64,000 nucleotides of DNA, taken from the NCBI GenBank assembly GCA_965113315.1, contig OZ220378.1. The stretch is one strand, 5' to 3'. The translations under genes were made by a program, and so were the position numbers. This document shows, piece after piece, positions 2,635 through 63,752 of the stretch; position 1 is the stretch's first letter; each line of letters opens with the position of its first letter. The stretch is from Podarcis vaucheri. Lineage: Eukaryota. The notes below the pieces were generated by a model. It did no database searches. It saw nothing but the letters and a program-made list of their open reading frames with translations, and was not told where the DNA came from.

Positions 2635-5600
2635 GTATGCTCTTTTCTCTATTCAAGATCAATACAAAATCTTTTCTGAGTATTAAATAACTAAAGACTT
2701 TATTTCCCTCTACAGGGAGCCAGGTGCTTCTTTTCTTAGGTAGAAAAGTATGAATTTACAAAGAACTAGGCTAATTTGCATAATATTCAGCATTTAAATA
2801 CTTGATTTTTTTCTCACCAGTTTGATGTATTCTAAATTTTCTGTTTGGGACAATGCTGTTTGGATTCAAGGAAGAGTAGCTTCTTGGTATGGGCAAGCAC
2901 TCCAAGACTTCTCTTTAGAGTGATCTCCTGTGATTTATTCCACTTGTGTAGCCCTGGGAGTTCCATGGGTGTAGGTTGCTGGGTTGAGACAGTGTGATAA
3001 TGGAAAAGGATTTGTTGTCTACTCTGGAGTTCACCTGGGCAAGTCTTGCCTGTTACGGAAGGGGGGGGGCATGTCTTCTTCACTACAATATATTTGCTCA
3101 ATTTCTCTAGGACTCCATCACCCCTCCCCTGTCCTCCATAATCTCTCAAGTAATCCTGTCAAAATCACTCTGCCAAACCTTTCCTCGGGCAATGCCAGGT
3201 GACAGACTATGCGTACATGGACCATTGTCTTCTCAGGATGTGCTTATCTGCGCTTATCTCCAGCTCTGCATATTCCCCCCTCCCTCCTCCATATGTTAAT
3301 CCAGTGTAACCCAACCTCTCCTTAATGTATTCATGATGTAATCTGTGTAACCCAACCTTTCCTTAATGTATTCGTGATGTAACTGGGAGGTATTTTGCAC
3401 TGTATTCTGGGACATGGAGGGAAATTTCAAAAGTTCATGTCACCCCCTTTCTCGCTGTTCAATCTCGCCTTGAACCTGTTGCGCAATAAACTTGGACCTT
3501 CTGCAGTTGCTCCTGTGTCCGGCTGAGCTCATTTTCTTCCGCAGGGACCCACGGACTTCGTCCGATGAGCTGGGTGGCAGAGTAACCCCACACCCAGATT
3601 TTAGCCGTAACATGCCGAAATACCTGCTTGACTGTGCAGCTTAAAGCAAATGGAGAAAAATATAAAGAGATTGAATGAGATTGCCACAGTGAAGAATCCT
3701 CATGGCTTGGTGTGCAGGAGGCAACAGAGTAGTGGCAGGAAGAGGAGGAAGTCCCCTATTTGGAAGCCTCCTTCTGTTGTCAGCAAAAATCTGCCCTTTC
3801 CCCCCTTATGGGGTATCCAAGAGCCCATATAGAGTCCTTACGTAGGTTTCCTATTGGTAGGAGAAAATAACAGAGGCCAACCAGAGAATATTGAGAAGCA
3901 AAGCAGCTAGTAAGCCTGATCTTTATTGATCTGTTGCAACAGGGTGCTCCCCTCACACGCAGGAAAGGAGGAGGACCCAGAAAAATGGTGTGCCAGGCCT
4001 TATAAAGACTTTTGAAATTGCCCTCCTGTAGATTAAGACCACCCCCAGAAACATCATACATACATCATAGAAAAGGTGGTCTAAACAGAAATTTAAATGT
4101 TGTTTATCTCTTGTCCTTGTTTATCTCCTGTCTGGCAGGTTACTTGATCGGATTTCCTGGGCAGCCTGGCTAGTCTTTTGTAGTGATAAATACTTAGTTC
4201 CTGGGCCAGGTCACAGGCTCACACCCTATTCAAACACAGACAGAATTTGTGAAGGAAAAGACAATGGGGAGGCTTTTCCATTTTGACCTTGCAGAGAAAA
4301 GATTTGGTCAGTTTAGGAATCAAAATGGTTCCAGGTTGGCCTTCCTGTGCTGATCTATGTATGTGCTTGGTTGGTACACTTATGAACATTACCATATATC
4401 TAAGACCATAAAATTCCTATTACACCACCAGCACAACACATTTCACTCTTGCCTGCTTGTCTGCCTGCCTGCGGAGCCATGTATTGCCAGCACAAACTGC
4501 TTGCTCTCTTATCTGCCTGGCTGGCTGGCTGGCTGGCTGCATGTTTGTCTCCATGTGAGCAAATGGGGTGGGTGGCTGGTCTCTTTCCTCCCCAGCGATC
4601 CACAGGGAGGAAAGAGATCAGCTATCTCGCTTGTGAGAAGGCAAACAGGCAGCCTGGCAGGCAACCAGAGCTGCCTAAACAGTTGGTCTTGCACAGCTGT
4701 GAGCCTTCCTGCCTCCCAGCTGAGCTGTTTAAGGAAGCCCCAGCAACCCTACCCCCTTGGCTTCCATGAGCTGGAGAGGTATGGCAAGGGGGCTTGCTCA
4801 TCTGAAGGGCTGGGCAATTTATCTGGCTGCTTCTTCCTCCCCTAAGGTGGGGAGGAAGAAGCAGCCAAATACATTTCAGACATTGGGATATATCAGTATA
4901 CCGTGGTATTTAGCTGCTGATGTATCATGATGCTGAAAACCATCCATCGCCCGGCCCTAGTACAGTCTTCAACAAATACACAGCTGTATGTTTAGTACTT
5001 GGTTTCTTTTTAAATTTGTTTTGTAATAATTGCATTGTTTAAATCCTTGTATTGTAAACTGTGGTGGCATTTTACTTACAGTGGAAAGTGTTGGTTCTAG
5101 GAAAAATAGGTATAAAGGAGATCCAAGCTGAGGGCAAGTACTCTTTGGTGAGAGAACCCCAGCAGAGAGTCAAAATCACAAAATATGCAGCAAAGTAAAA
5201 TTGTGGGAATTTAGGCTCTTAGACCTTTAAAATACGCCCTTCCAAGTTCTTTCCGGAGTTTCCCTCTTCCTTACCTTGGTCTTCTTCCCTCCCCTTTTTG
5301 AAAATGGTGTTGTCAACAAAAATCTGCCCTTTTCCCCCTTATGGGGTATCCAAGAGCCCATATAGTGTCCTTACGTAGGTTTTCTATTGGTAGGAGAAAA
5401 TAACAGAGGCCAACCAGAGACTATTGAGAAGCAAAGCAGCTAGTAAGCTTGATCTTTATTGATCTGTTGCAACAGGGTCCTCTCTCACCACACGCAGGAA
5501 AAGAGGAGGACCCAGAAAAATGGTGTGCAAGGGCTTATAAAGACTTTTGAAATTCCCATCCTGTAGATCAAGACCACTCCCAGAAACATTATGCATACAT

Positions 5601-20854: not shown

Positions 20855-23800
20855 TTTATTTATATCCCGCCCTCCCCAGCCGAAGCCGGGCTCAGGGCGG
20901 CTAACAACAATCAAATAATCAGTCAAATAATCACATAATCTAAAAATATTTCATTATAAAAATTAATTAAATCAAATTGATGGCAACCAATTAAGCAAAA
21001 TTCTGTGCAGGTTGCCAGAGGAGGGAGTCAGGCTGCGCCCTGACCAAAGGCCTGGCGGAACAACTCTGTCTTGCAGGCCCTGCGGAAAGATGTCAGGTCC
21101 CGCAGGGCCCTAGTCTCTTGTGACAGAGCATTCCACCAGTTTGGAGCCGCAGCCGAGAAGGCCCTGGCTCTAGTTGAGGCCAGCCTAACCTCTCTTGAGG
21201 ATGTTATTATTTGCAGACCGTAGGTTTCTCTGTGGGGCATACCAGGAGAGGCGGTCCCGTAGGTACGAGGGTCCTAGGCCATATAGGGCTTTAAAGGTTA
21301 AAACCAGCACCTTAAACCTGATCCTGTACTCCACCGGGAGCCAGTGCAGCTGGTATAATACTGGATGAATGTGCTCTCGCAGCGAAGACCCCATAAGGAG
21401 TCTCGCCGCGGCATTCTGCACCCGCTGGAGTTTCTGGGTCAGTCTCAAGGGCAGCCCCACATAGAGCGAGTTACAATAATCCAGTCTGGAGGTGACCGTC
21501 GCATGGATCACAGTGGCTAGGTCAGGACGAGAGAGATAAGGGGCCAACTGCTTAGCTTGGCGGAGATGAAAAAATGCCGCCTTTGTTATAGCTGTAATCT
21601 GCGCCTCCATAGAGAGGGAGGTATCGAAGATTACACCCAAACTCTTAACGGCCGGTGCTGGCACTAATTGCACCCCCGCAAGGGATGGGAGTTGCCCCCT
21701 CGATCCCATATCGTCCCGCCCCAGCCAGAGGACCTCTGTCTTCGAAGGATTTAACTTCAACTGGCTCCCACGTAACCATCCAGCCACAGCTTCCAGACAT
21801 CTGGTCAGTGTGTCTGGGGCCGAGTCAGGATGGCCATCCATCAACAGATAGAGTTGGGTGTCATCAGCATACTGATGGCAGCCCAGCCCAAAACTCCGGA
21901 CAAGCTGGGCGAGGGGGCGCATAAAGATGTTAAAAAGCATCGGGGAGAGAATCGCACCCTGAGGCACTCCACACACCAAGGAGTGGCGCGATGACAATTC
22001 CCCCCCAAGCGCCACCCTCTGTCCCCGACCAGAGAGAAACGAGCGCAGCCATTGAAGGACTGTGCCCTGGATCCCCACGTCGGCAAGGCGGTGGTCCAGG
22101 AGTTCGTGATCGACCATGTCAAAGGCTGCTGACAGATCTAGAAGAATCAGCAGTCCCGACCCGCCTCGATCCAGCTGCCTGCGGAGATCATCTGTTAGGG
22201 CGACCAGAGCCGTCTCGGTCCCATGACCAGCGCGGAAGCCGGACTGGAATGGATCCAGAGCAGATGTTTCATCCAGAAACCTACCAAGCTGTTCAGCAAC
22301 CGCTCTCTCAATCACCTTACCCAGGAATGGAAGATTCGAGACCGGGCGGTAATTGGATAGATCTGAGGGATCTAATGATGTTTTCTTTAAGAGCGGACGC
22401 ACCACTGCCTCCTTCAGTTCCCCTGGGAATATCCCGGTGCCAAGGGACAAATTGATGATATCCCCCAGGGGGCCCCGCACCTCGTCTGGACACGCTCTAA
22501 TCAGCCATGACGGGCACGGGTCAAGAGGACAGGTGGTGGGCTTTCCAGCTTGGAGGAATCTGTCCACATCGGCTGGAGATATCCGGTCAAAGTGGTCCAA
22601 TACTGGACCCGAGGACAGTCGAGGGGCCTCCAGTTCCTTTATTGTATCCAAATTGGCAGGGAGGTCATGGCGGAGCAACAGGACCTTCTCCGCAAAAAAG
22701 CTCGCAAATGCCTCACAGCTGTGTGTCAGATTGTTATTTAAATTTGGCTGTCCTTCAAGGGACATTAAAGACCGAATTATACTAAATAATTGCGCCGGGC
22801 GAGAGCTAGCGGATGCAATGGAGGCCGAGAAGTAAGACTTCTTAGCGGCCTTCACTGCCATCTCATAGGTTTTCATAAAAACCCTATAAGATGTTCTTGA
22901 GGCTCCGTCACGGGCACCCCGCCATACTCGCTCTAGCCGTCTGAGGTCCCGCTTCATTTTCCGAAGCTCCTCGGTAAACCAGGGAGCCCGGTTTCTGCGG
23001 GGTCGCAGAGGGCGCTTAGGTGCGATCTCATCGATGGCTGCCAGGAGCTGGGTATTCCAGCCCTCAACAAGCTCAGTCAATGAGTCGCCAGGGGGAGTAA
23101 GGTCCCGCAAGGCTTGACGGAATCTATCCGGGTCCATCAGCCTCTGCGGGCGAGCCCAAATCGGCTCGCCACCTAAGCAGGGTGGGGGTGGAAAGTCAAT
23201 CCTGGCTTTCAGAGCGTAGTGATCAGACCATGGCACCTTCATCGAAGGAGACATGATCACATCTATACCGGCGCCAAAGATCAAATCCAGCGTGTGGCCT
23301 GCTTGATGTGTGGGGCCCGAAACAAACTGGGAGAGCCCTAGTGTCGCCATGGAAGACACCAGGTCCAGAGCCTGTGAGGAGGGAGTGGCATCAGCATGGA
23401 AGTTGAAGTCTCCCAATACCAATAGGTTAGGGAACTCCAAGGCCCAGCCGGCCACCGCCTCCAGCAGGCCTGACAGGGTGGCTGCTGGTGCGCTAGGTGG
23501 CCGGTACACCAGCCAGACAGCCAAGCTCTCCTCAGAGCCCCACACTAGGCCAACACATTCAATGCCGGGGATCGATGGTGATGGTAGAGCCCTGAAAGAA
23601 CAATCTTCCCGGATTAATACTGCCACCCCTCCCCCCCGGCCCACAGTCCGTGACTGGTGGAGGACGGAGAAACTCGGGGGTGCCATCTCTCGTAAGGTAA
23701 CAGTTTCCCCTTTGCGCACCCAGGTCTCCGTCACACAAGCCAGGTCAACCCCCTGCGAGGTGAAGAAATCTCGCAGGGTGGCGGTTTTGTTGCCTATAGA

Positions 23801-26800
23801 CCTGGCATTGCACAACACCAGTGAAGGAGGTGAGTAATCCTTGCTCACCCTACCCTCGTCCCTTGGGATGGGGCGCAGATTGGAAGGGGTACGAGCATAT
23901 CCGGATCTCGATCCCCTTCGCCTATGACATCTGCCCCCACCGCCATACCTCCCTCGCCCCTTAAATGAAATTAAGGGAGAGGACTTGCTGAATAAATAAT
24001 TTGAAATTGGAATACAGAAAGGGGAGGTAGGAGGAGGTCAGCGAAGTAAGGTATAAGAAAATAAGGGATCAAAATTATACTTGTTTTTTCTCTGTGTTTT
24101 GTTTGTTTTCTTTATATAATTTCTGAAACTTCAATAAATATCTATTAAAAAAAAAGGAAAAAAAGGAAGTTACAGGTCATGCAGTGATAAATGAAGCAAT
24201 ATGCCCACCCTGAAACTTTTGCAGGCGCAAAAGTTATTGAAAATGGAACTTCATTACTATCATAATTTCTCTGGAATTGCTGTACAGTCGTACCTCGGGT
24301 TAGATGTGCTTCAGGTTGAGCGCTTTTGGGTTGCGCGTCGCAGCAACCCGGAAGTAATGGAACACGTTACTTTCGGGTTTTGCCGCTCGCGCATACGCAG
24401 ACGGTCAAAATGACGTCATGCGCATGCGCGGAATCGCGACCCGCACAGACGCGGGTTACGTTCGCTTCAGGATGTGAACGGGGATCCGGATTGGATCCCT
24501 TTTGTATCCAGACGTACCACTGTAATGCTGCTTACAAATTAGATACAGCCTTTTGACCATGAGTTGTATGATGATCTGATATCACCTGAGTTTCTCTTTC
24601 AGTTTGACTACTTCACCAGAAACATGATTAAAGTTAAAACAGACTAGTAATTTTTGAAAATGCAAAATTTGGACTGCGCCAATTCTCCATGAGACGCAAG
24701 TGGTGCTGTGGTCTAAACCACAGAGCCTAGGACTTGCTGATCAGAAGGTTGGCGGTTTGTATCCCCGCGACGGGGTGAGCTCCCATTGCTCGGTCCCTGC
24801 TCCTACCAACCTAGCAGTTCGAAAGCACGTCAAAGTGCAAGTAGATAAATAGGTATCACTCTGGCGGGAAGGTAAACAGTGTTTCCGTGCGCTGCTCTGG
24901 TTCACCAGAAGCGGCTTAGTCATGCTGGCCACATGACCCGGAAGCTGTCTGCGGACAAACGCCGGCTCCCTCGGCCAGTAAAGCAAGATGAGCGCCACAA
25001 CCCCAGAGTTGGCTGTGCCTGGACTTATCAGTCAGGGGTCCCTTTACCTTTACCTAATTCTCCATATTAAATACATCTTTGATAAAATGAACTTTAAGGC
25101 TAGACACCATCTTCCAGATTGTGTATTGACTATTGATTCCATTGTTAACATCCTGCCTCCTTTTTTGTAATTAAGCTTAACGTCCCAGAAGTATTTTTTT
25201 AGTCAATGGAACATTTCTTTGTTCTGTATGCATTGCACTGGAAGTTAAGATTTAATTTATTAATTTTGGATGTGGTTAAATTAATTTGATTTATGTAAGC
25301 TGTTTGTGATTGGCTGTTATTTCTAACTTAATTATTTATATAAGTGAAATTCACTTTTTAATAATAAATAAATAGAATTGTGTATAACTGCTCTGATACC
25401 AAATCATCATGAATGTACAATAGAAAAGATGCTCAGAAAAATATTCCCAACTCTTACTGTATTCAGAACATACTCCCTGACTGAATCTTTGGTTTTAGGA
25501 ATAAAGATACATATTTTTTGTTGTTGTATCCCTCCAGTTCCATGTGCTTTTTTCTTTTCTTTTCAGCACTTTCCAGTTGGATACTGATTCAGCTTTGCAG
25601 CTTTGCATTGAAACACACCTCCAGAATGCTAGCATGAGTCATGCTGAAGGGTATTTGGGGGGGCATTCTGGGAAGCAGACTCATGCATTGGTAGTGGCCA
25701 GAGCTGCAGAAACAATCCCTCTTCTGAAAAGCACTACTGACTTGGTTACAAGCCTCAGTGTAATGTTGCACAAGGTAAAACTTACAGGCTATGTTTATCC
25801 CCCAAACCTAAATTCCACAGTTTCTATTCCATTGTATGGAATAGGGCAGTATTAATTAGAAGGATGGACTGATTAAGCCTAACAGTTTTTTGCAAATAAT
25901 TTTTCATACTAATTAGAAGTAAGAGGCCGAAACTGTCTAGTTTCAACCCCACCGCTTTTAAGATGAGGCCACCCGCAGACCAACCTGCTCTTAACTAGAT
26001 TATGACAGCCCGCTAGACCCATCTCAGGAAAGTACCTCCAGAGCAACTAACTTTTATTTAATACTTCATTACAGAAGATAGATGCCCAACATTACAGTCT
26101 CCAAGAGTCACAAGTTGTGCTCAATTTACTGTCCCTGCCACATGTGATCATTGCATGCACTTAATAGCTGCATGTGAATTTGACCTTGGAATGGTTAGTA
26201 TTTAACTTTGTTCTATCTAAACCAGGGTTTGAATCTGGTTAGCAAACCTTGGTTATGAGAGAACCTGGTTATCACTATCCATGGTGAAGGTCAGCAGGGG
26301 AAGAGCAAGGGGCATTCATGTTTGTGACAGCAGAGTCACTGAGTGGAGGCAGCATGAGCTTTGTTTCTGTCCTCAGCAGCCTGACGTGTATTTGTTTTTA
26401 TGAGCTTTATCTTCTGGGATTTATCCATTCCTTTTGGTTTGTTCTGTGTTTTTGTTTCCTGTTTGCTTCTAATCCCTGGAACAGTTTGAGCCATATGACT
26501 ATGAAAGGATTGAAAGTCTTCTGACAATCATAGAAAAGGCTGGTGTGGAAGCAGCAGGCATCTCTCTGAATCAGGTAAGATAATGAACTGAGCCAATTAA
26601 CTTACGGAATTGCAATCTGGCTTTTAGATAGGGGATCTGTTTGATGAACTATGGATTACTCTAACCCAGTGCTGCATATATAATCCATTTTGAAGAGAAC
26701 CTCTAGAATCACCTAGAAGTTTCAAGTAATACTTGTTACCAGAAACAAGTCGTACTGCTAGTCCATTTGAAAAGTTTGTACTTTACAGGCATTCTTCTTA

Positions 26801-38800: not shown

Positions 38801-41800
38801 GGACCTTAAGTTTACAAAGCCACGGATGGGGAATCCAGCCCTTCAGCTCACATCACCCCTGACCGTTGGCAGGGCTGACTGGGGCAAATAGAAGTTGGAG
38901 TTCAACAGCAGCGGGAAGACCAAATTGTTCCTATCCTTTTACTAAGCTGTGGTCTGGTGCGAAAAACAAATGCTGCTGGCTCCATAACTTTGCCAATTTA
39001 TCAATCCCTAAGTTGTTTTGTTTCAATTGTTTTATTTATTTTTGAAAATTTTAATGCTGTTAGCTTTGGGAGTGAACACTGAAAGTGTATGAAAGAAAAT
39101 TTAAAACAATTTCACAAAATAACATACAAGTTTAGACATTATTTTGATGATTTTAAACTAGCTGCAGCAGCAACTGAAGGTGGTAGTGTAGGTTGAATGA
39201 ATGTAATTTCTAAAAGCACAATGGAGATAAATGGGCATCCTTCAGAAGATCATTTCAGGGCCATGGCAGAAAAGGTCCTGCATCCTGTAGCTGGCAGCCT
39301 GGCCTCTCTAAATCTTGGAACTTGAATCAAGTCCTCGTCTGCTGTGTAATTTGGGGGAGGCATACATGGGCAAAGGCCTCAGTTGGCACCTTAATTGAAC
39401 TCTGAAACCAGTTGGTAGGCAAGTTGCTGGATAGGACAATGCCAGTTTGGGTCTGTGAATCAGGAGCTGGGGGTCTAGTCCACTTGGTATCCTAAACTGT
39501 CTTCAGTGGCATCAATGTGGCAGTTTACTTCAACTGTAATATCCTCTCATTCAGTGAGCAGGTTCTTGCAGGGCTAGTTTCAGCAATATTTTCACTCGGC
39601 AGCTGTCCTTTGGAAGAATGGAACTTTTTTTGCAAATAGTCAGGAATAGCATCTCCCTCCACCCCCAGCACCGTTATATAAAAATAAACTGGGGAAAAGA
39701 TACTGTATAGTTTATTAATAGTTTAGTGCTTTAAAAATAATAATTCTGTATTATTTTCATCCCCCTCCCTATTTTAGCCTATTGGAGTAAACAAGTTGAC
39801 CTTTGCTCACAGAAGCCGGGCTCTCAAGTGTCTGCTCTTCCTGGCGGACCCTTGTGCTATTGAGACCCTCTTCAAAAAGCCCCTAGAGGAAGTGAGGTGA
39901 GCAGAGTCTTGTTTTCCTTCAGACATACAAAATGCCAACCAGTGATGAAGTTTCATTCAATTTCCCCAAACACCTTGTTGGCTCCCATCCACAGCATGTG
40001 CAGTGCTGACAGTGCTGCAGACATGAAAGCCTCCCCCACCCTTCTCCCAAGGAACTCAAGGTGGAATGTGTTGTGAGATGGCAGGCAGATCAATCACCCA
40101 AGGCTGAGCAGGAATTTAAACCAGAGCCACCACATCACACTGGCAGATTTAAGAAGCTAAGATCCAGCCAGTGCATGGACGAAAGCCGGGTCCCGAATTC
40201 CATGCAACAACTCAGTGAAATTCTAGCATTTGAAAAAGGGCCCTGCATGCACAGTTTTGGATCAGGGAAGGAAAACACACCGTTCCTCATCTAGCTCTTT
40301 ATTAGACGTTTGTAGCATTTTGGTTTCCCTGTTGTGAACCTCTACAATAAAGCACATTTCTTTTTAATAGGAATTTCCTGAAATGCTTAATTTTCCTTGC
40401 TCAGTTTGAAATTCTGAATATCCCATACACCTACTCAACGTTTCATAGCACTCCCAAGGAAGGAATGATCAAAGGCTTGTGGAAGAACCATAGCCACGAA
40501 CCCATGGTAATATGGCAGGGGGCTGGAGATTGGAGGGGACAAAACACATATCTTTTCCCTCATGTTGTATCTTTTTTAATGCACAGCGGTGTTCAGGATA
40601 TTATCAGGTACACAGAGAAGAGTACAAAGTGTTTAACTCCTACGTTACTGATGAACAGCAAAAGTTTTCTCTGCTTTGGAATGATTCACAGTAACATGGT
40701 GTTCAATAAAAAATAAAATAATTTACTCATTGGTTTCAGGCAGTGAAACTTGTGGCAGAGCTTAGCTTGGAATATAAAGTGCACGATGCTTTACTCTGGA
40801 ATGGTTTGCTTCAGAAGCTAATTAGTTTCAACAAGGTAAGACTTCTTTGGAGAGGGAAAGGTCCCTCTATGTTTTGGTGTCCTGCGAGAAAAGCTTCCTA
40901 GTGCTAGTGCAGGTTTGGGTTCTAGTTCGTTAAATTTTATAGATTCAGGTACGTAGCTGTGTGTCAGGACTGGTCGTTGTCCTCTTCAGATCACCACACA
41001 AACGCTTCTTGTTCTTTTATAACTTTTTATTGTGTATTAACAAAACAATCTTATAAACGGTTCTTAACGGTTCTTATTCTTCCTCAAAGTCACTTCTTTC
41101 AGCTACCTTTGGAGCTCTGCTTCTCCGTGACCAGCCACTCTCAAAATGGCGAAGGTGCCCTTCCTTTCACTTTCCCGCTCTTTTTCCTACCCTCCTGGCT
41201 AGAGCTGTATCTCCCCTCCTCCGAATCTGAGCTAGAACGGAACCCTTGCCTTTCCTGGGAACAGCCGGTCCCTCCCTCTTCTTCCTCTTGCTCTCTTCTC
41301 TTCAATTCACTGCTCTCCTCCCCCCCTTGGGGAATGCTTTCTCCCTCTGAGAAACTGGAAACTTCTAACTCTTCCCTGACACCGTGTTGGTCTGACACAG
41401 TTGAAATATATATATAAAATTGTCCAGTAGCACCTTAAGGTAAAGGTAAAGGTACCCCTGCCCGAACGGGCCAGTCTTGACAGACTGTGGGGTTTGTGCG
41501 CCCATCTCACATCTATTGGCCGGGGGCCAGCGCTGTCCGGGGACACTTCCGGGTCACGTGGCCAGCGTGACATCGCTGCTCTGGCGAGCCAGAGCCGCAC
41601 ACGGAACGCCGTTTACCTTCCCGCTGGTAAGCGGTACCTATTTATCTACTTGCCCCCGGGGGTGCTTTCGAACTGCTAGGTTGGCAGGCGCTGGGACCGA
41701 GCAGCGGGAGCGCACCCCGCCGCGGGGATTCGAACCGCCGACCTTTCGATCGGCAAGCCCTAGGCGTTGAGGCTTTAGCCCACAGCGCCACCCGCGTCCC

Positions 41801-51335: not shown

Positions 51336-51651
51336 TACACTCAGTAGAATTTAATTTTCTGTCTAATATGTGAGACTTGGTTATTGCCTGCACACGAGGG
51401 TAGATTTGCAGTGGATTTAAGAGCACCTCCACCTTGCTTGGAAAAAGCCTTGCACTTCAAGGACGGCAAGCAAACGAGATGCGCTCTCCACTGCTACAAG
51501 ACACTATGACATATGTGGTCAGGCCTCAGACTTTCAGCTCTTCTAAGCCCCCTTGCTTGGCCAGATCAGCCTGGAAACTTTCAGGCTCAGGTGACGTTTA
51601 TCCCAATATTGCTTTCTACCTGTCCTGTACATTTGCCCCCCAGTATCATGG

Positions 51652-52434
51652 TGTCAGGGCTGCCTCAGGTCTCAGCTCACAAAAGACCAACGCCAAGCTC
51701 TTCTTATATACAAGGATGTTTATTGCAGTTCATTATTGGTTCCACAACCGAGGCGCGCAGCCCCGAGTCTCTAACGTCAGACATTTGAAGTCCCCTCTGA
51801 ATCGGTCCCGCCCCTGCACCAACTTAAGAGGCTTGTGCTAGACCACCTCTTCCTGTCTTTCCTTTTCCGCAGGGTCTTTCTGCCCCCCTGGGTTCCTTCC
51901 CTCCTGCTCTCTCCTGAAGCGGATTCCTGAGATGCCTGTTCCCCCCTCCTTCGTGCTTTGGGGCTGGGCTCCTCCTCCGGGCTTTCTCCATTTCCGCGCG
52001 CCTCCACATTTGAACTTGGCGCGCGCTCGCTACCCCTGACCTTCCTTTTGACACTTACACTACTCCCTGTACTACTCTCCGCCTCTTCCGGCAGGACGTT
52101 CTCCCCAGATCTCCTTCCCCTGTCTCTTTCCTGCTCCGCTCCGTGTGTCACACTGGGAACCCCCCTCTCTTCCCTTCGTTCCTGCTGGGAAGCCGGCCCC
52201 GCTCTCCCACTCCCGCTCGGGATTTCCCTGCTGCTTCCCTGCTCCTGGCAGGTCCCCCCTGTGACCCCCCTTGTCCTGACTAGGGGCGCCCCCTCCTGAG
52301 AATCCTCCGATTCACTTGAGAGACTCATGGAAGATCTCAAGTCATTGTCATCCTCTTCCTCACTGTCCTGGGATTCTTCCTCGTCGCTCTCCGTCTCCTC
52401 CCTCACCTGTGCCTCTGTCTCTGAACCCCTGACA
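51652..52434 (-). mobile_element. Solo LTR (783 bp) carrying a long ORF
   Basis: Termini TGTCAGGG...CCCTGACA; perfect 5-bp TSD CATGG; minus-strand AATAAA at about 51719-51724. Confidence 0.9.
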
Positions 52435-53309
52435 CATGGTTTCTTCAACTAGGATAGAGCGCCACATACGTTATTCTCAGCAAAGGAATCCCAGCCCAAA
52501 ACAGCCCCAACCTCAAGGAAGAAGACAGAAACAGAAAGCTTATGACCAATTCTTATGTTCTTATATTGCTGGACAATGAGCCCATTTGGATGGGGTGAGA
52601 GAGGTCACTTCCAACATCTCTCTGTTCCACACTGAATAAATTTATGTTGCCATTTCTATGCTATTTAACATAATTCTTTCTCTTTTGGAGGGAGACTCAT
52701 GGCCAAGAATAGACTCCAAAATGGCCACATGGCTGAGGTTCCCCCCCCCCCCCCGTGCAATTCAGCATCTGGAAGAGTCGAGAAATTCGTAACATGACCA
52801 GCTCCCTTTCTGGTGCATTCATCCACTGAGTGTAAAAGAAGAGAGGATGGAGACCTCTTTCAAGTTAATGTCATGAGTCCTGCTTCTAGCAGCAATCAGA
52901 CATGGAGCTGCAGTGACATCAGAGGAGAAGCTGGTTCAGGGCTCAGAGCTGCTGCTGGACGTAGGGTGACCCCCCCCCCCACCTGAGCTGTTGGACAGGA
53001 GCCTCCCAGACTACCAGGGGCTATAAGGACCAGAGCCCCTCCCACCACCCATGACCAGTCTGGCAATGCCAGGGCTTTTCAGAAGGGAGGCTGCAGTGTG
53101 CCTGCCTTCAGGCCAGAGGTTGGCTGCCCTTCAAGGTTGAAGGCTCTCAGAGCAGGGGAGCCTGGTGCCAGAGGCATCCAAGGTGTCTGTCTGCCTGCCT
53201 TTCTGCTCCCAACCTTTGCTGCAGCAAGCTGCTCCCTCTGCCCCCCTCAGCCCAGCAACCTTTGGCCAGACGTGCCTCTTTTTCTGTGGGATCCCAGTCT
53301 CGGATCAGA

Positions 53310-58981: not shown

Positions 58982-63752
<4,771 letters not shown>

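Follow-up and report, generated by a model that had tools for sequence, protein, structure and literature searches.

Pol of lizard Tf1/sushi-type chromoviruses runs through the PPT into the U3 of its own LTR, likely as an extension of integrase

A solo LTR within a 64,000-nt stretch of the Podarcis vaucheri genome (contig OZ220378.1, referred to below as the window) is open on one strand for most of its length, which raises the question of whether this frame is a by-product of base composition or the end of a protein of the parent elements. The original prediction described a TSD-bounded solo LTR open for about 219 codons in the nnT-GTC-AGG register, with EEEPSPKARRR and RKTLRKRKDRKRW in its peptide. 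Frame reading confirmed this register: the frame starts at base 2, comprises 218 codons and contains both peptide motifs, and the TSD, CCATG, is 5 bp long and perfect. LTR A derives from a young chromovirus of the Tf1/sushi type, of which it is a solo LTR, and it displays the following features.

51652 to 52434, minus strand: solo LTR A, family A1 (Tf1/sushi-type chromovirus), 783 bp, with terminal inverted repeats and TSD
52435 to 52439, minus strand: 5' target-site duplication of LTR A, CCATG
51647 to 51651, minus strand: 3' target-site duplication of LTR A, CCATG
51777 to 52433, minus strand: frame of the pol/integrase C-terminal tail, 218 codons plus stop, coded in the 3' LTR of the parents and spanning the entire predicted U3
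51945 to 51968, minus strand: first basic patch PSPKARRR, part of a candidate NLS, proposed from sequence only
51843 to 51881, minus strand: terminal basic patch RKTLRKRKDRKRW, candidate NLS, proposed on the same basis
51819 to 51830, minus strand: LLSW motif, with the DNA TTAAGTTGG at 51819-51827
51788 to 51798, minus strand: 11-mer complementary to the PBS of the element, predicted self-primer and RNA 5' end (U3/R border)
51719 to 51724, minus strand: predicted AATAAA polyadenylation signal, 53 nt past the pol stop

LTR A starts with TGTCAGGG and ends with CCCTGACA, the inverted ends being 8 bp long. The remaining two sense frames are closed after 24 and 9 codons. Upon shuffling, as had been proposed, a longest frame of at least 218 codons was obtained in 0.7% of the dinucleotide shuffles (n=3000, P = 0.007) and in 1.4-2.2% of the block shuffles (3000 each, P = 0.014-0.022), and the probability of a frame open from the start was 0.003-0.010 (3000 shuffles each). 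Among the genomic copies of family A, the best 40 of 1895 first-look candidates are 99-100% identical to LTR A. With regard to the neighbourhood, the exons at 59351-61207 and 62094-62588 (minus strand) resemble those of ZNRF3, and LTR A follows the long one downstream at a distance of about 7 kb; a Pfam search with these two exon fragments returned no match. A 950-codon frame at 21185-24037 (minus strand), with endonuclease and RT domains, is a young LINE ORF2.

The full-length parents of family A are 6.5 kb long, and four paired copies, flanked by 5-bp TSDs, show 2-5 differences between their own two LTRs. Their Pfam domains are, in order, RVP_2, RVT_1, RT_RNaseH, Integrase_H2C2, rve and SH3_Tf2-1, with a gag of the Retrotrans_gag/Ty3_capsid type, which corresponds to the PR-RT-RH-IN order with GPY/F-SH3 of Tf1/sushi chromoviruses. 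The C-terminal chromodomain of the integrase (PF00385) scores above the Pfam cut-off in family B (47 bits) and family C1 (35 bits); that of family A, with 13 bits, is below the cut-off, yet it aligns with the chromodomains of the other families. The sense strand of the parents encodes gag and pol only. The pol frame is at -1 relative to gag, and the two genes share ~70 nt (L033, around 4917-4989, minus strand), which implies a programmed frameshift.

In full-length A copies, pol runs from the chromodomain via the PPT 218 codons into the 3' LTR. Among the 13 A1 elements with a 3' junction (L034 being out of register and L039 omitted since the start of its 3' LTR was not found), the chromodomain is located 566 nt from the LTR, in register, in eight, and the distance is off by 1-2 nt in five. 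Five of these 13 keep the chromodomain frame open as far as LTR base 658, and in one family A copy the unbroken pol frame comprises 1520 codons. Four of the loci (L041-L044) share one flank and hence are not independent; they represent a single family-A insertion found at four sites with an identical upstream flank, i.e. a segmental duplication. The proposal that pol, or a 3' ORF, crosses the PPT into U3 is thus borne out, pol itself being continuous in family A and, with a 665-codon frame, in family B. The suggested search for stops in an LTR consensus was replaced by a copy-by-copy comparison of genomic copies. We consider it highly probable that this read-through is real and under selection. 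When the 3' 2.2 kb was compared with RNA (three raw runs and one contig set, mostly carrying another organism label), 40-305 mostly partial matches were found, from mixed subfamilies and on both strands, almost none of them across the PPT.

The PBS is complementary to the LTR over 10-11 nt in 13 of the 16 tabulated elements and over 8-9 nt in two B elements, with none found in L122 (family E). The PBS and the LTR 11-mer covary across A1, A2, C1, C2 and D. Complementarity of the PBS to about 11 nt of the LTR is the self-priming arrangement of Tf1/sushi chromoviruses, and the Tf1 mechanism, as given in the accessible text of PMC7175516, is the model for placing the RNA 5' end at the 11-mer; on this basis, the 11-mer is predicted to mark the U3/R border. 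A GTAAGT following the 5' LTR resembles a splice donor, but the PBS begins with these letters, which accounts for them; other families are devoid of GTAAGT.

In each family, the pol stop falls either inside the 11-mer or no more than about 50 nt beyond it. R plus U5 is steady at about 127-160 nt, and the predicted U3, of 220-636 nt, is wholly coding. Only the U3 copy of the 3' LTR would be translated, the copy of the 5' LTR probably acting as promoter only. As U3 is upstream of the predicted start, solo LTR A should not make the peptide from its own promoter. The LTRs of C1 and C2 (L111-L116, L124, L135) and of E (L122) have no AATAAA, unlike those of A, B and D.

The second LTR of the window belongs to the same clade.

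40962 to 41381, minus strand: solo LTR B, family B, 420 bp, older (87-92% identity to other copies), in the clade and register of LTR A
41141 to 41380, minus strand: 79-codon open frame of LTR B, which departs from the family frame owing to a 5-nt deletion private to this copy

The TSD of LTR B is imperfect (CACGG/CACAG). The private deletion is located near LTR position 174 (about window position 41208) and leaves the last third of the 79 codons outside the family-B frame. The statement that LTR B is open in the register of LTR A is right as to the register, but a frame of 79 codons is within chance (shuffle P 0.21-0.34). Likewise, the acidic-then-basic layout claimed for LTR B applies to family B but not to the last third of the window copy, due to the deletion. 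In family B as a whole, 17 of 29 located LTR copies are open for at least 100 codons. Among six stretches examined, one exhibits the 665-codon frame, which ends 316 nt inside the LTR, two are decayed with an in-register junction, and three have no usable 3' end.

The same layout is observed in families A2, B, C1, C2 and D, and E likewise reads through; C1, C2, D and E were recovered by a Pfam SH3 search that is independent of the LTR. The LTRs of the tail-bearing families measure 368-784 bp. A2 is a sister subfamily, with a 757-bp LTR, 209 codons and 64% nucleotide identity in U3; the whole 1.5-kb flank is open in 8 of 11 located loci with an upstream PPT, these loci having been located by protein query and being therefore biased to intact copies. 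For the top 30 SH3_Tf2-1 loci, which were not chosen for ORF length, a PPT-LTR junction could be called in 25, of which 16 are in register. Over 59 SH3 loci, 29 of them picked partly for long open frames and 11 dropped for want of a junction, 34 of 48 junctions are in register and 25 loci are open into the LTR in register. In a midpoint-rooted tree of 17 of 27 integrase rows (family F was among the 10 left out), the tail-bearing integrases form one clade with a support of 100/99, which is separate from fish Tf2-like proteins; the named V-clade reference elements were not part of this tree. A considerable part of the chromovirus integrase matches is found on one 41-Mb contig, many of them in near-identical blocks, and our guess is that this contig is a repeat-rich sex chromosome.

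Family F (L183-L202) of the same genome, whose LTR also begins with TGTCAGG, was used as a control. Its pol ends at the end of the chromodomain in four of five junction copies, and its LTR, read in the nnT-GTC-AGG register, is closed by codon 11 in all 16 copies.

With regard to the integrase, the chromodomain of the tail-bearing families has lost the third cage aromatic in all rows and the first in nearly all, and family A is also devoid of the W, whereas family F and the fish and frog rows retain all three (positions read by eye, with the definition of PMC3059260). The tail-bearing families therefore lack the full set of three cage aromatics that defines the type I, H3K9me-reading, chromodomain. 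Between the chromodomain and the PPT, all of them exhibit one or two F-x(7-12)-F-x-G-F motifs (e.g. L036:5597-5722; L114:1480-1605, minus strand; L079:6665-6790), which are in tandem in families C and D. The residues F, T, F, G and F are invariant in nine aligned motif rows, and the shuffle P of the motif ranges from <0.0001 to 0.019 in six tails.

The layout of these motifs is that of the JPO2 and POGZ motifs fused to the LEDGF IBD (P0177, P0179). According to the accessible text of PMC9987994, a TIM comprises a helix with a hydrophobic anchor, an acidic linker of 8-16 aa and FxGF, is tuned by CK2 and binds LEDGF/HRP2. Families B, C, D and E show all the sequence elements of this definition; family A shows the spacing and FxGF only, its linker being S/T-rich and not acidic, so the match is weaker in the family of LTR A. 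A PDB profile search with the motif alignment gave nothing below E 0.75, the KMT2A peptide being found at E 0.98, under a chance myosin match. Complex prediction for the family-A FxGF peptide and the lacertid LEDGF IBD, run without alignments and with a method unproven on peptides, gave a score of 0.01, which we weigh neither for nor against binding. Judging from the motif, a LEDGF/HRP2 tether is a candidate function, to which we give slightly less than even odds. The FxGF motifs are located upstream of the LTR and leave the coding U3 unexplained.

The LTR-coded tail contains few hydrophobic residues. Its first half is net acidic, with 3-13 S/TxxD/E sites, and its last 35 residues carry a net charge of +5 to +11 in the eight tails examined. 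The counterpart of PSPKARRR in subfamily A2 is PGPKARRK. Alignment between families is poor over most of the tail, and the middle varies strongly in length and sequence. In A1, A2 and C2, the DNA of a terminal LLxW-type motif (LLSW in LTR A) is located 20 nt ahead of the self-primer, and it may serve the core promoter no less than the protein. Pfam contains no family matching the window peptides of LTR A and LTR B or the 416-aa tail. In a protein search, six of the best 150 representatives match past profile position 190 (P0012, P0013, P0018, P0098, P0049 and P0160), and P0005 matches to 191; P0012, P0013 and P0018 have real tails, and P0098, P0049 and P0160 were rejected as relatives, their tails being unrelated. 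Among species-named proteins, the full tail is found in Podarcis muralis only. The UniRef entry P0002 contains the tail, unremarked.

Selection on the U3 frame was examined with natural copies and DNA-only alignments. In all eight pairs, it is the pol frame that gives the lowest dN/dS of U3 (0.37-0.59, the CI excluding 1 in seven), with values of 1.07-2.22 in the other sense frames; these pairs consist of copies chosen for an intact frame, are not all independent, and were counted with stop paths excluded. Between A1 and A2, the pol frame has a dN/dS of 0.49 (0.33-0.67), as against 1.34 and 1.59 in the other sense frames. A ratio near 1 had been named as evidence against a coding role; the ratio found is about 0.5 and is below 1 in the pol frame only. 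For every base, differences are more frequent at third codon positions than at the other two, with a base-stratified odds ratio of 1.99 over four pairs (p 3e-9), and of 1.79 (p 1e-5) once the att site and the final 75 nt are removed. The N/S of variants common to independent insertions is 118/90, versus 244/101 for private variants (p 0.0009), in an analysis from which 2 of 17 C2 and 7 of 8 D copies were dropped because of their excessive divergence from the reference copy; in family B taken by itself, the shift is small (37/16 versus 62/18). In a neutral simulation at the observed divergence, the 218-codon frame survives in 0.2-0.5% of cases. No depletion of shared stop codons was found (3/211 versus 7/352, p 0.75). 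The predicted excess of 3n indels in U3 is thin: it appears when the ORF is compared with the post-stop region (p 0.023, a comparison in which two in-frame events may have entered the count twice), but not when shared indels are compared with private ones (p 0.13). Selection on the tail is weak in comparison with the integrase core, where dN/dS is 0.07-0.11. This weak selection, together with the poor alignment of most of the tail between families, fits a spacer with little specific function.

Based on these observations, our main reading, with a probability of about 0.6, is that pol extends, under purifying selection, through the PPT and all of the predicted U3, and that the tail likely acts as an arm of integrase in nuclear import or chromatin docking. 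Gag-Pol translation would end in R, the U3 of the 3' LTR being translated as the end of Gag-Pol; the U3 of the 5' LTR would be promoter only, and a solo LTR would be a silent relic. The disordered extension after the chromodomain would then form one module on the mature integrase. Its first part, before the PPT, would consist of one or two motifs with a helix ending in F, an acidic linker and FxGF, likely binding the TND of LEDGF/HRP2, and this binding would replace H3K9me reading. An acidic, Ser-rich spacer coded by U3 and carrying CK2-type sites would follow, and the basic patch, likely an NLS or DNA anchor, would come last. A bolder version, which we hold only tentatively, is that this chromovirus clade swapped heterochromatin reading for host-factor mimicry, with FxGF gripping LEDGF/HRP2 and the entire U3 promoter coding for the rest of the arm; its tether would then also be that of HIV, here reached via a linear motif.

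Three other explanations have to be weighed against this reading. The open frame could be a mere by-product of a purine-rich U3, and the original prediction had stressed that purine bias requires chance to be excluded. The purine content of U3 is indeed 62-70%, the frame of window LTR B does not go beyond shuffles, and in family F, where pol stops before the LTR, a different LTR frame, not joined to pol, is open for at least 100 codons in 8 of 16 copies. As these family F frames of ~100 codons show no sign of selection, length alone is no evidence, and it is the register and the selection that count. The family F frame has no codon-position bias, shared changes numbering 18/17/22 at the three positions, and its shared indels are frame-shifting, whereas the frame-specific third-position excess of the tail survives base stratification and the register is tied to pol in all tail-bearing families examined. 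For LTR A, the shuffles and the frame-specific selection make chance improbable; the frame of LTR B, taken alone, is within it. A by-product without any selected role, already largely refuted by the selection tests, is very improbable.

It is also conceivable that translation matters and not the peptide: ribosomes would end near the poly(A) site, to the benefit of RNA stability, escape from decay or cis-delivery of Pol, and the tail would be a tolerated disordered appendage constrained in composition only. This would account for a stop that tracks the U3/R border in every family regardless of U3 length, for the variable middle of the tail and for a dN/dS of only about 0.5. However, stop avoidance alone should give a dN/dS near 1 when stop paths are excluded, and the value stays at about 0.5 without the promoter end; the basic C-terminus is kept in eight of eight tails, and, with the Gag stop about 4.5 kb upstream, a long 3' UTR would in any case follow the point where most ribosomes terminate. 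We thus regard this explanation as unlikely, although less so than a separate accessory protein released by the protease, such as a transactivator, an RNA chaperone or an anti-silencing factor, which we find rather improbable. The acidic and basic disordered composition would suit such roles, and retroviruses are known to have 3' accessory ORFs overlapping U3, namely nef, sag and bel. These have their own start or a spliced mRNA, whereas the lizard frame is a continuation of pol that proceeds seamlessly from the integrase chromodomain, and neither a separate start, nor a splice form, nor a cleavage site was identified. In addition, the LTR-encoded motif of plant CRM elements is an integrase targeting motif (PMC3059260, accessible text).

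An arm on integrase therefore remains the reading that we prefer, and it can be compared with known systems, as far as these are covered by the accessible text of the cited sources. The Tf1/sushi V-clade (Sushi-ichi, Amn-ichi/ni/san; PMC6317226, PMC3601003, PMC7175516) is alike in having gag followed by an overlapping pol in the -1 frame, the PR-RT-RH-IN-SH3-chromo order, an 11-nt self-priming PBS and a 5-bp TSD, and the lizard LTR ends, TGTCAGG...CTGACA, agree with TGTYANR/CNTNACA, the att motifs of Sushi. In contrast to this clade, the lizard pol adds about 200-360 residues past the chromodomain, 74-218 of them in the LTR, and the lizard families exhibit a broken chromodomain cage and acidic-FxGF motifs. 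At the protein level, six fish proteins and two further ones have a GG..TVT/SVR-type junction followed by only 4-49 residues, which likely reflects a short ancestral read-through in the same register.

The closest precedent in layout is group A of the plant CRM elements (Beetle, Bingo), in which the gag-pol ORF continues beyond the PPT and enters the 3' LTR, where it codes for an integrase targeting region, the CR motif, which replaces the normal chromodomain (PMC3059260, PMC3605345, accessible text). The lizard families share the ORF entering the 3' LTR, but they are self-primed instead of tRNA-Met primed, they retain a degenerate chromodomain upstream of the PPT instead of substituting a CR motif for it, and their ORF takes up all of U3 as far as the predicted start site. 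They work like CRM in layout and are not members of it. The host TIMs of JPO2, POGZ, KMT2A and IWS1 resemble the lizard motifs in their helix ending in F, acidic S/T linker of 8-11 residues and FxGF, whereas the candidate motifs in lizards sit on a retrotransposon integrase and the linker of family A is not acidic. In the accessible text of the TIM review (PMC9987994), lentiviral integrases bind the LEDGF domain that TIMs bind, and no transposon case is given among the TIMs. Ty1 integrase likewise has a C-terminal extension for import and targeting, with an NLS, a targeting domain and CK2 substrate sites (PMC9673352, accessible text), but Ty1 is a copia element whose extension is not LTR-encoded, and no homology is claimed.

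Coding that enters U3 had been suggested as possibly undescribed for squamate LTR retrotransposons. In the literature searched, no vertebrate pol entering an LTR is described, although Repbase, subscription papers and supplements may already show such ORFs; within chromoviruses as a whole, plant CRM is a precedent. Nor was an FxGF motif found in any transposon integrase in this literature, which did not extend to subscription papers and Repbase. An ORF entering the 3' LTR is thus known; without a counterpart in the literature searched is a fully coding U3 ending at the self-primer, together with a broken cage and TIM-like motifs.

These results imply that, in these LTRs, the predicted promoter/enhancer region also codes for protein and does so under selection. 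Since U3 is coding, solo LTRs, of which family A has 1895 first-look candidates, are relics of an integrase exon, and their evolution is not purely regulatory. The pol stop marks the U3/R border, which provides a simple structural annotation rule for the clade. If FxGF binds LEDGF/HRP2, a retrotransposon would have reached the lentiviral tether independently, in a young family that lends itself to the mapping of insertion sites, and the replacement of a broken chromodomain in vertebrate chromoviruses would become testable.
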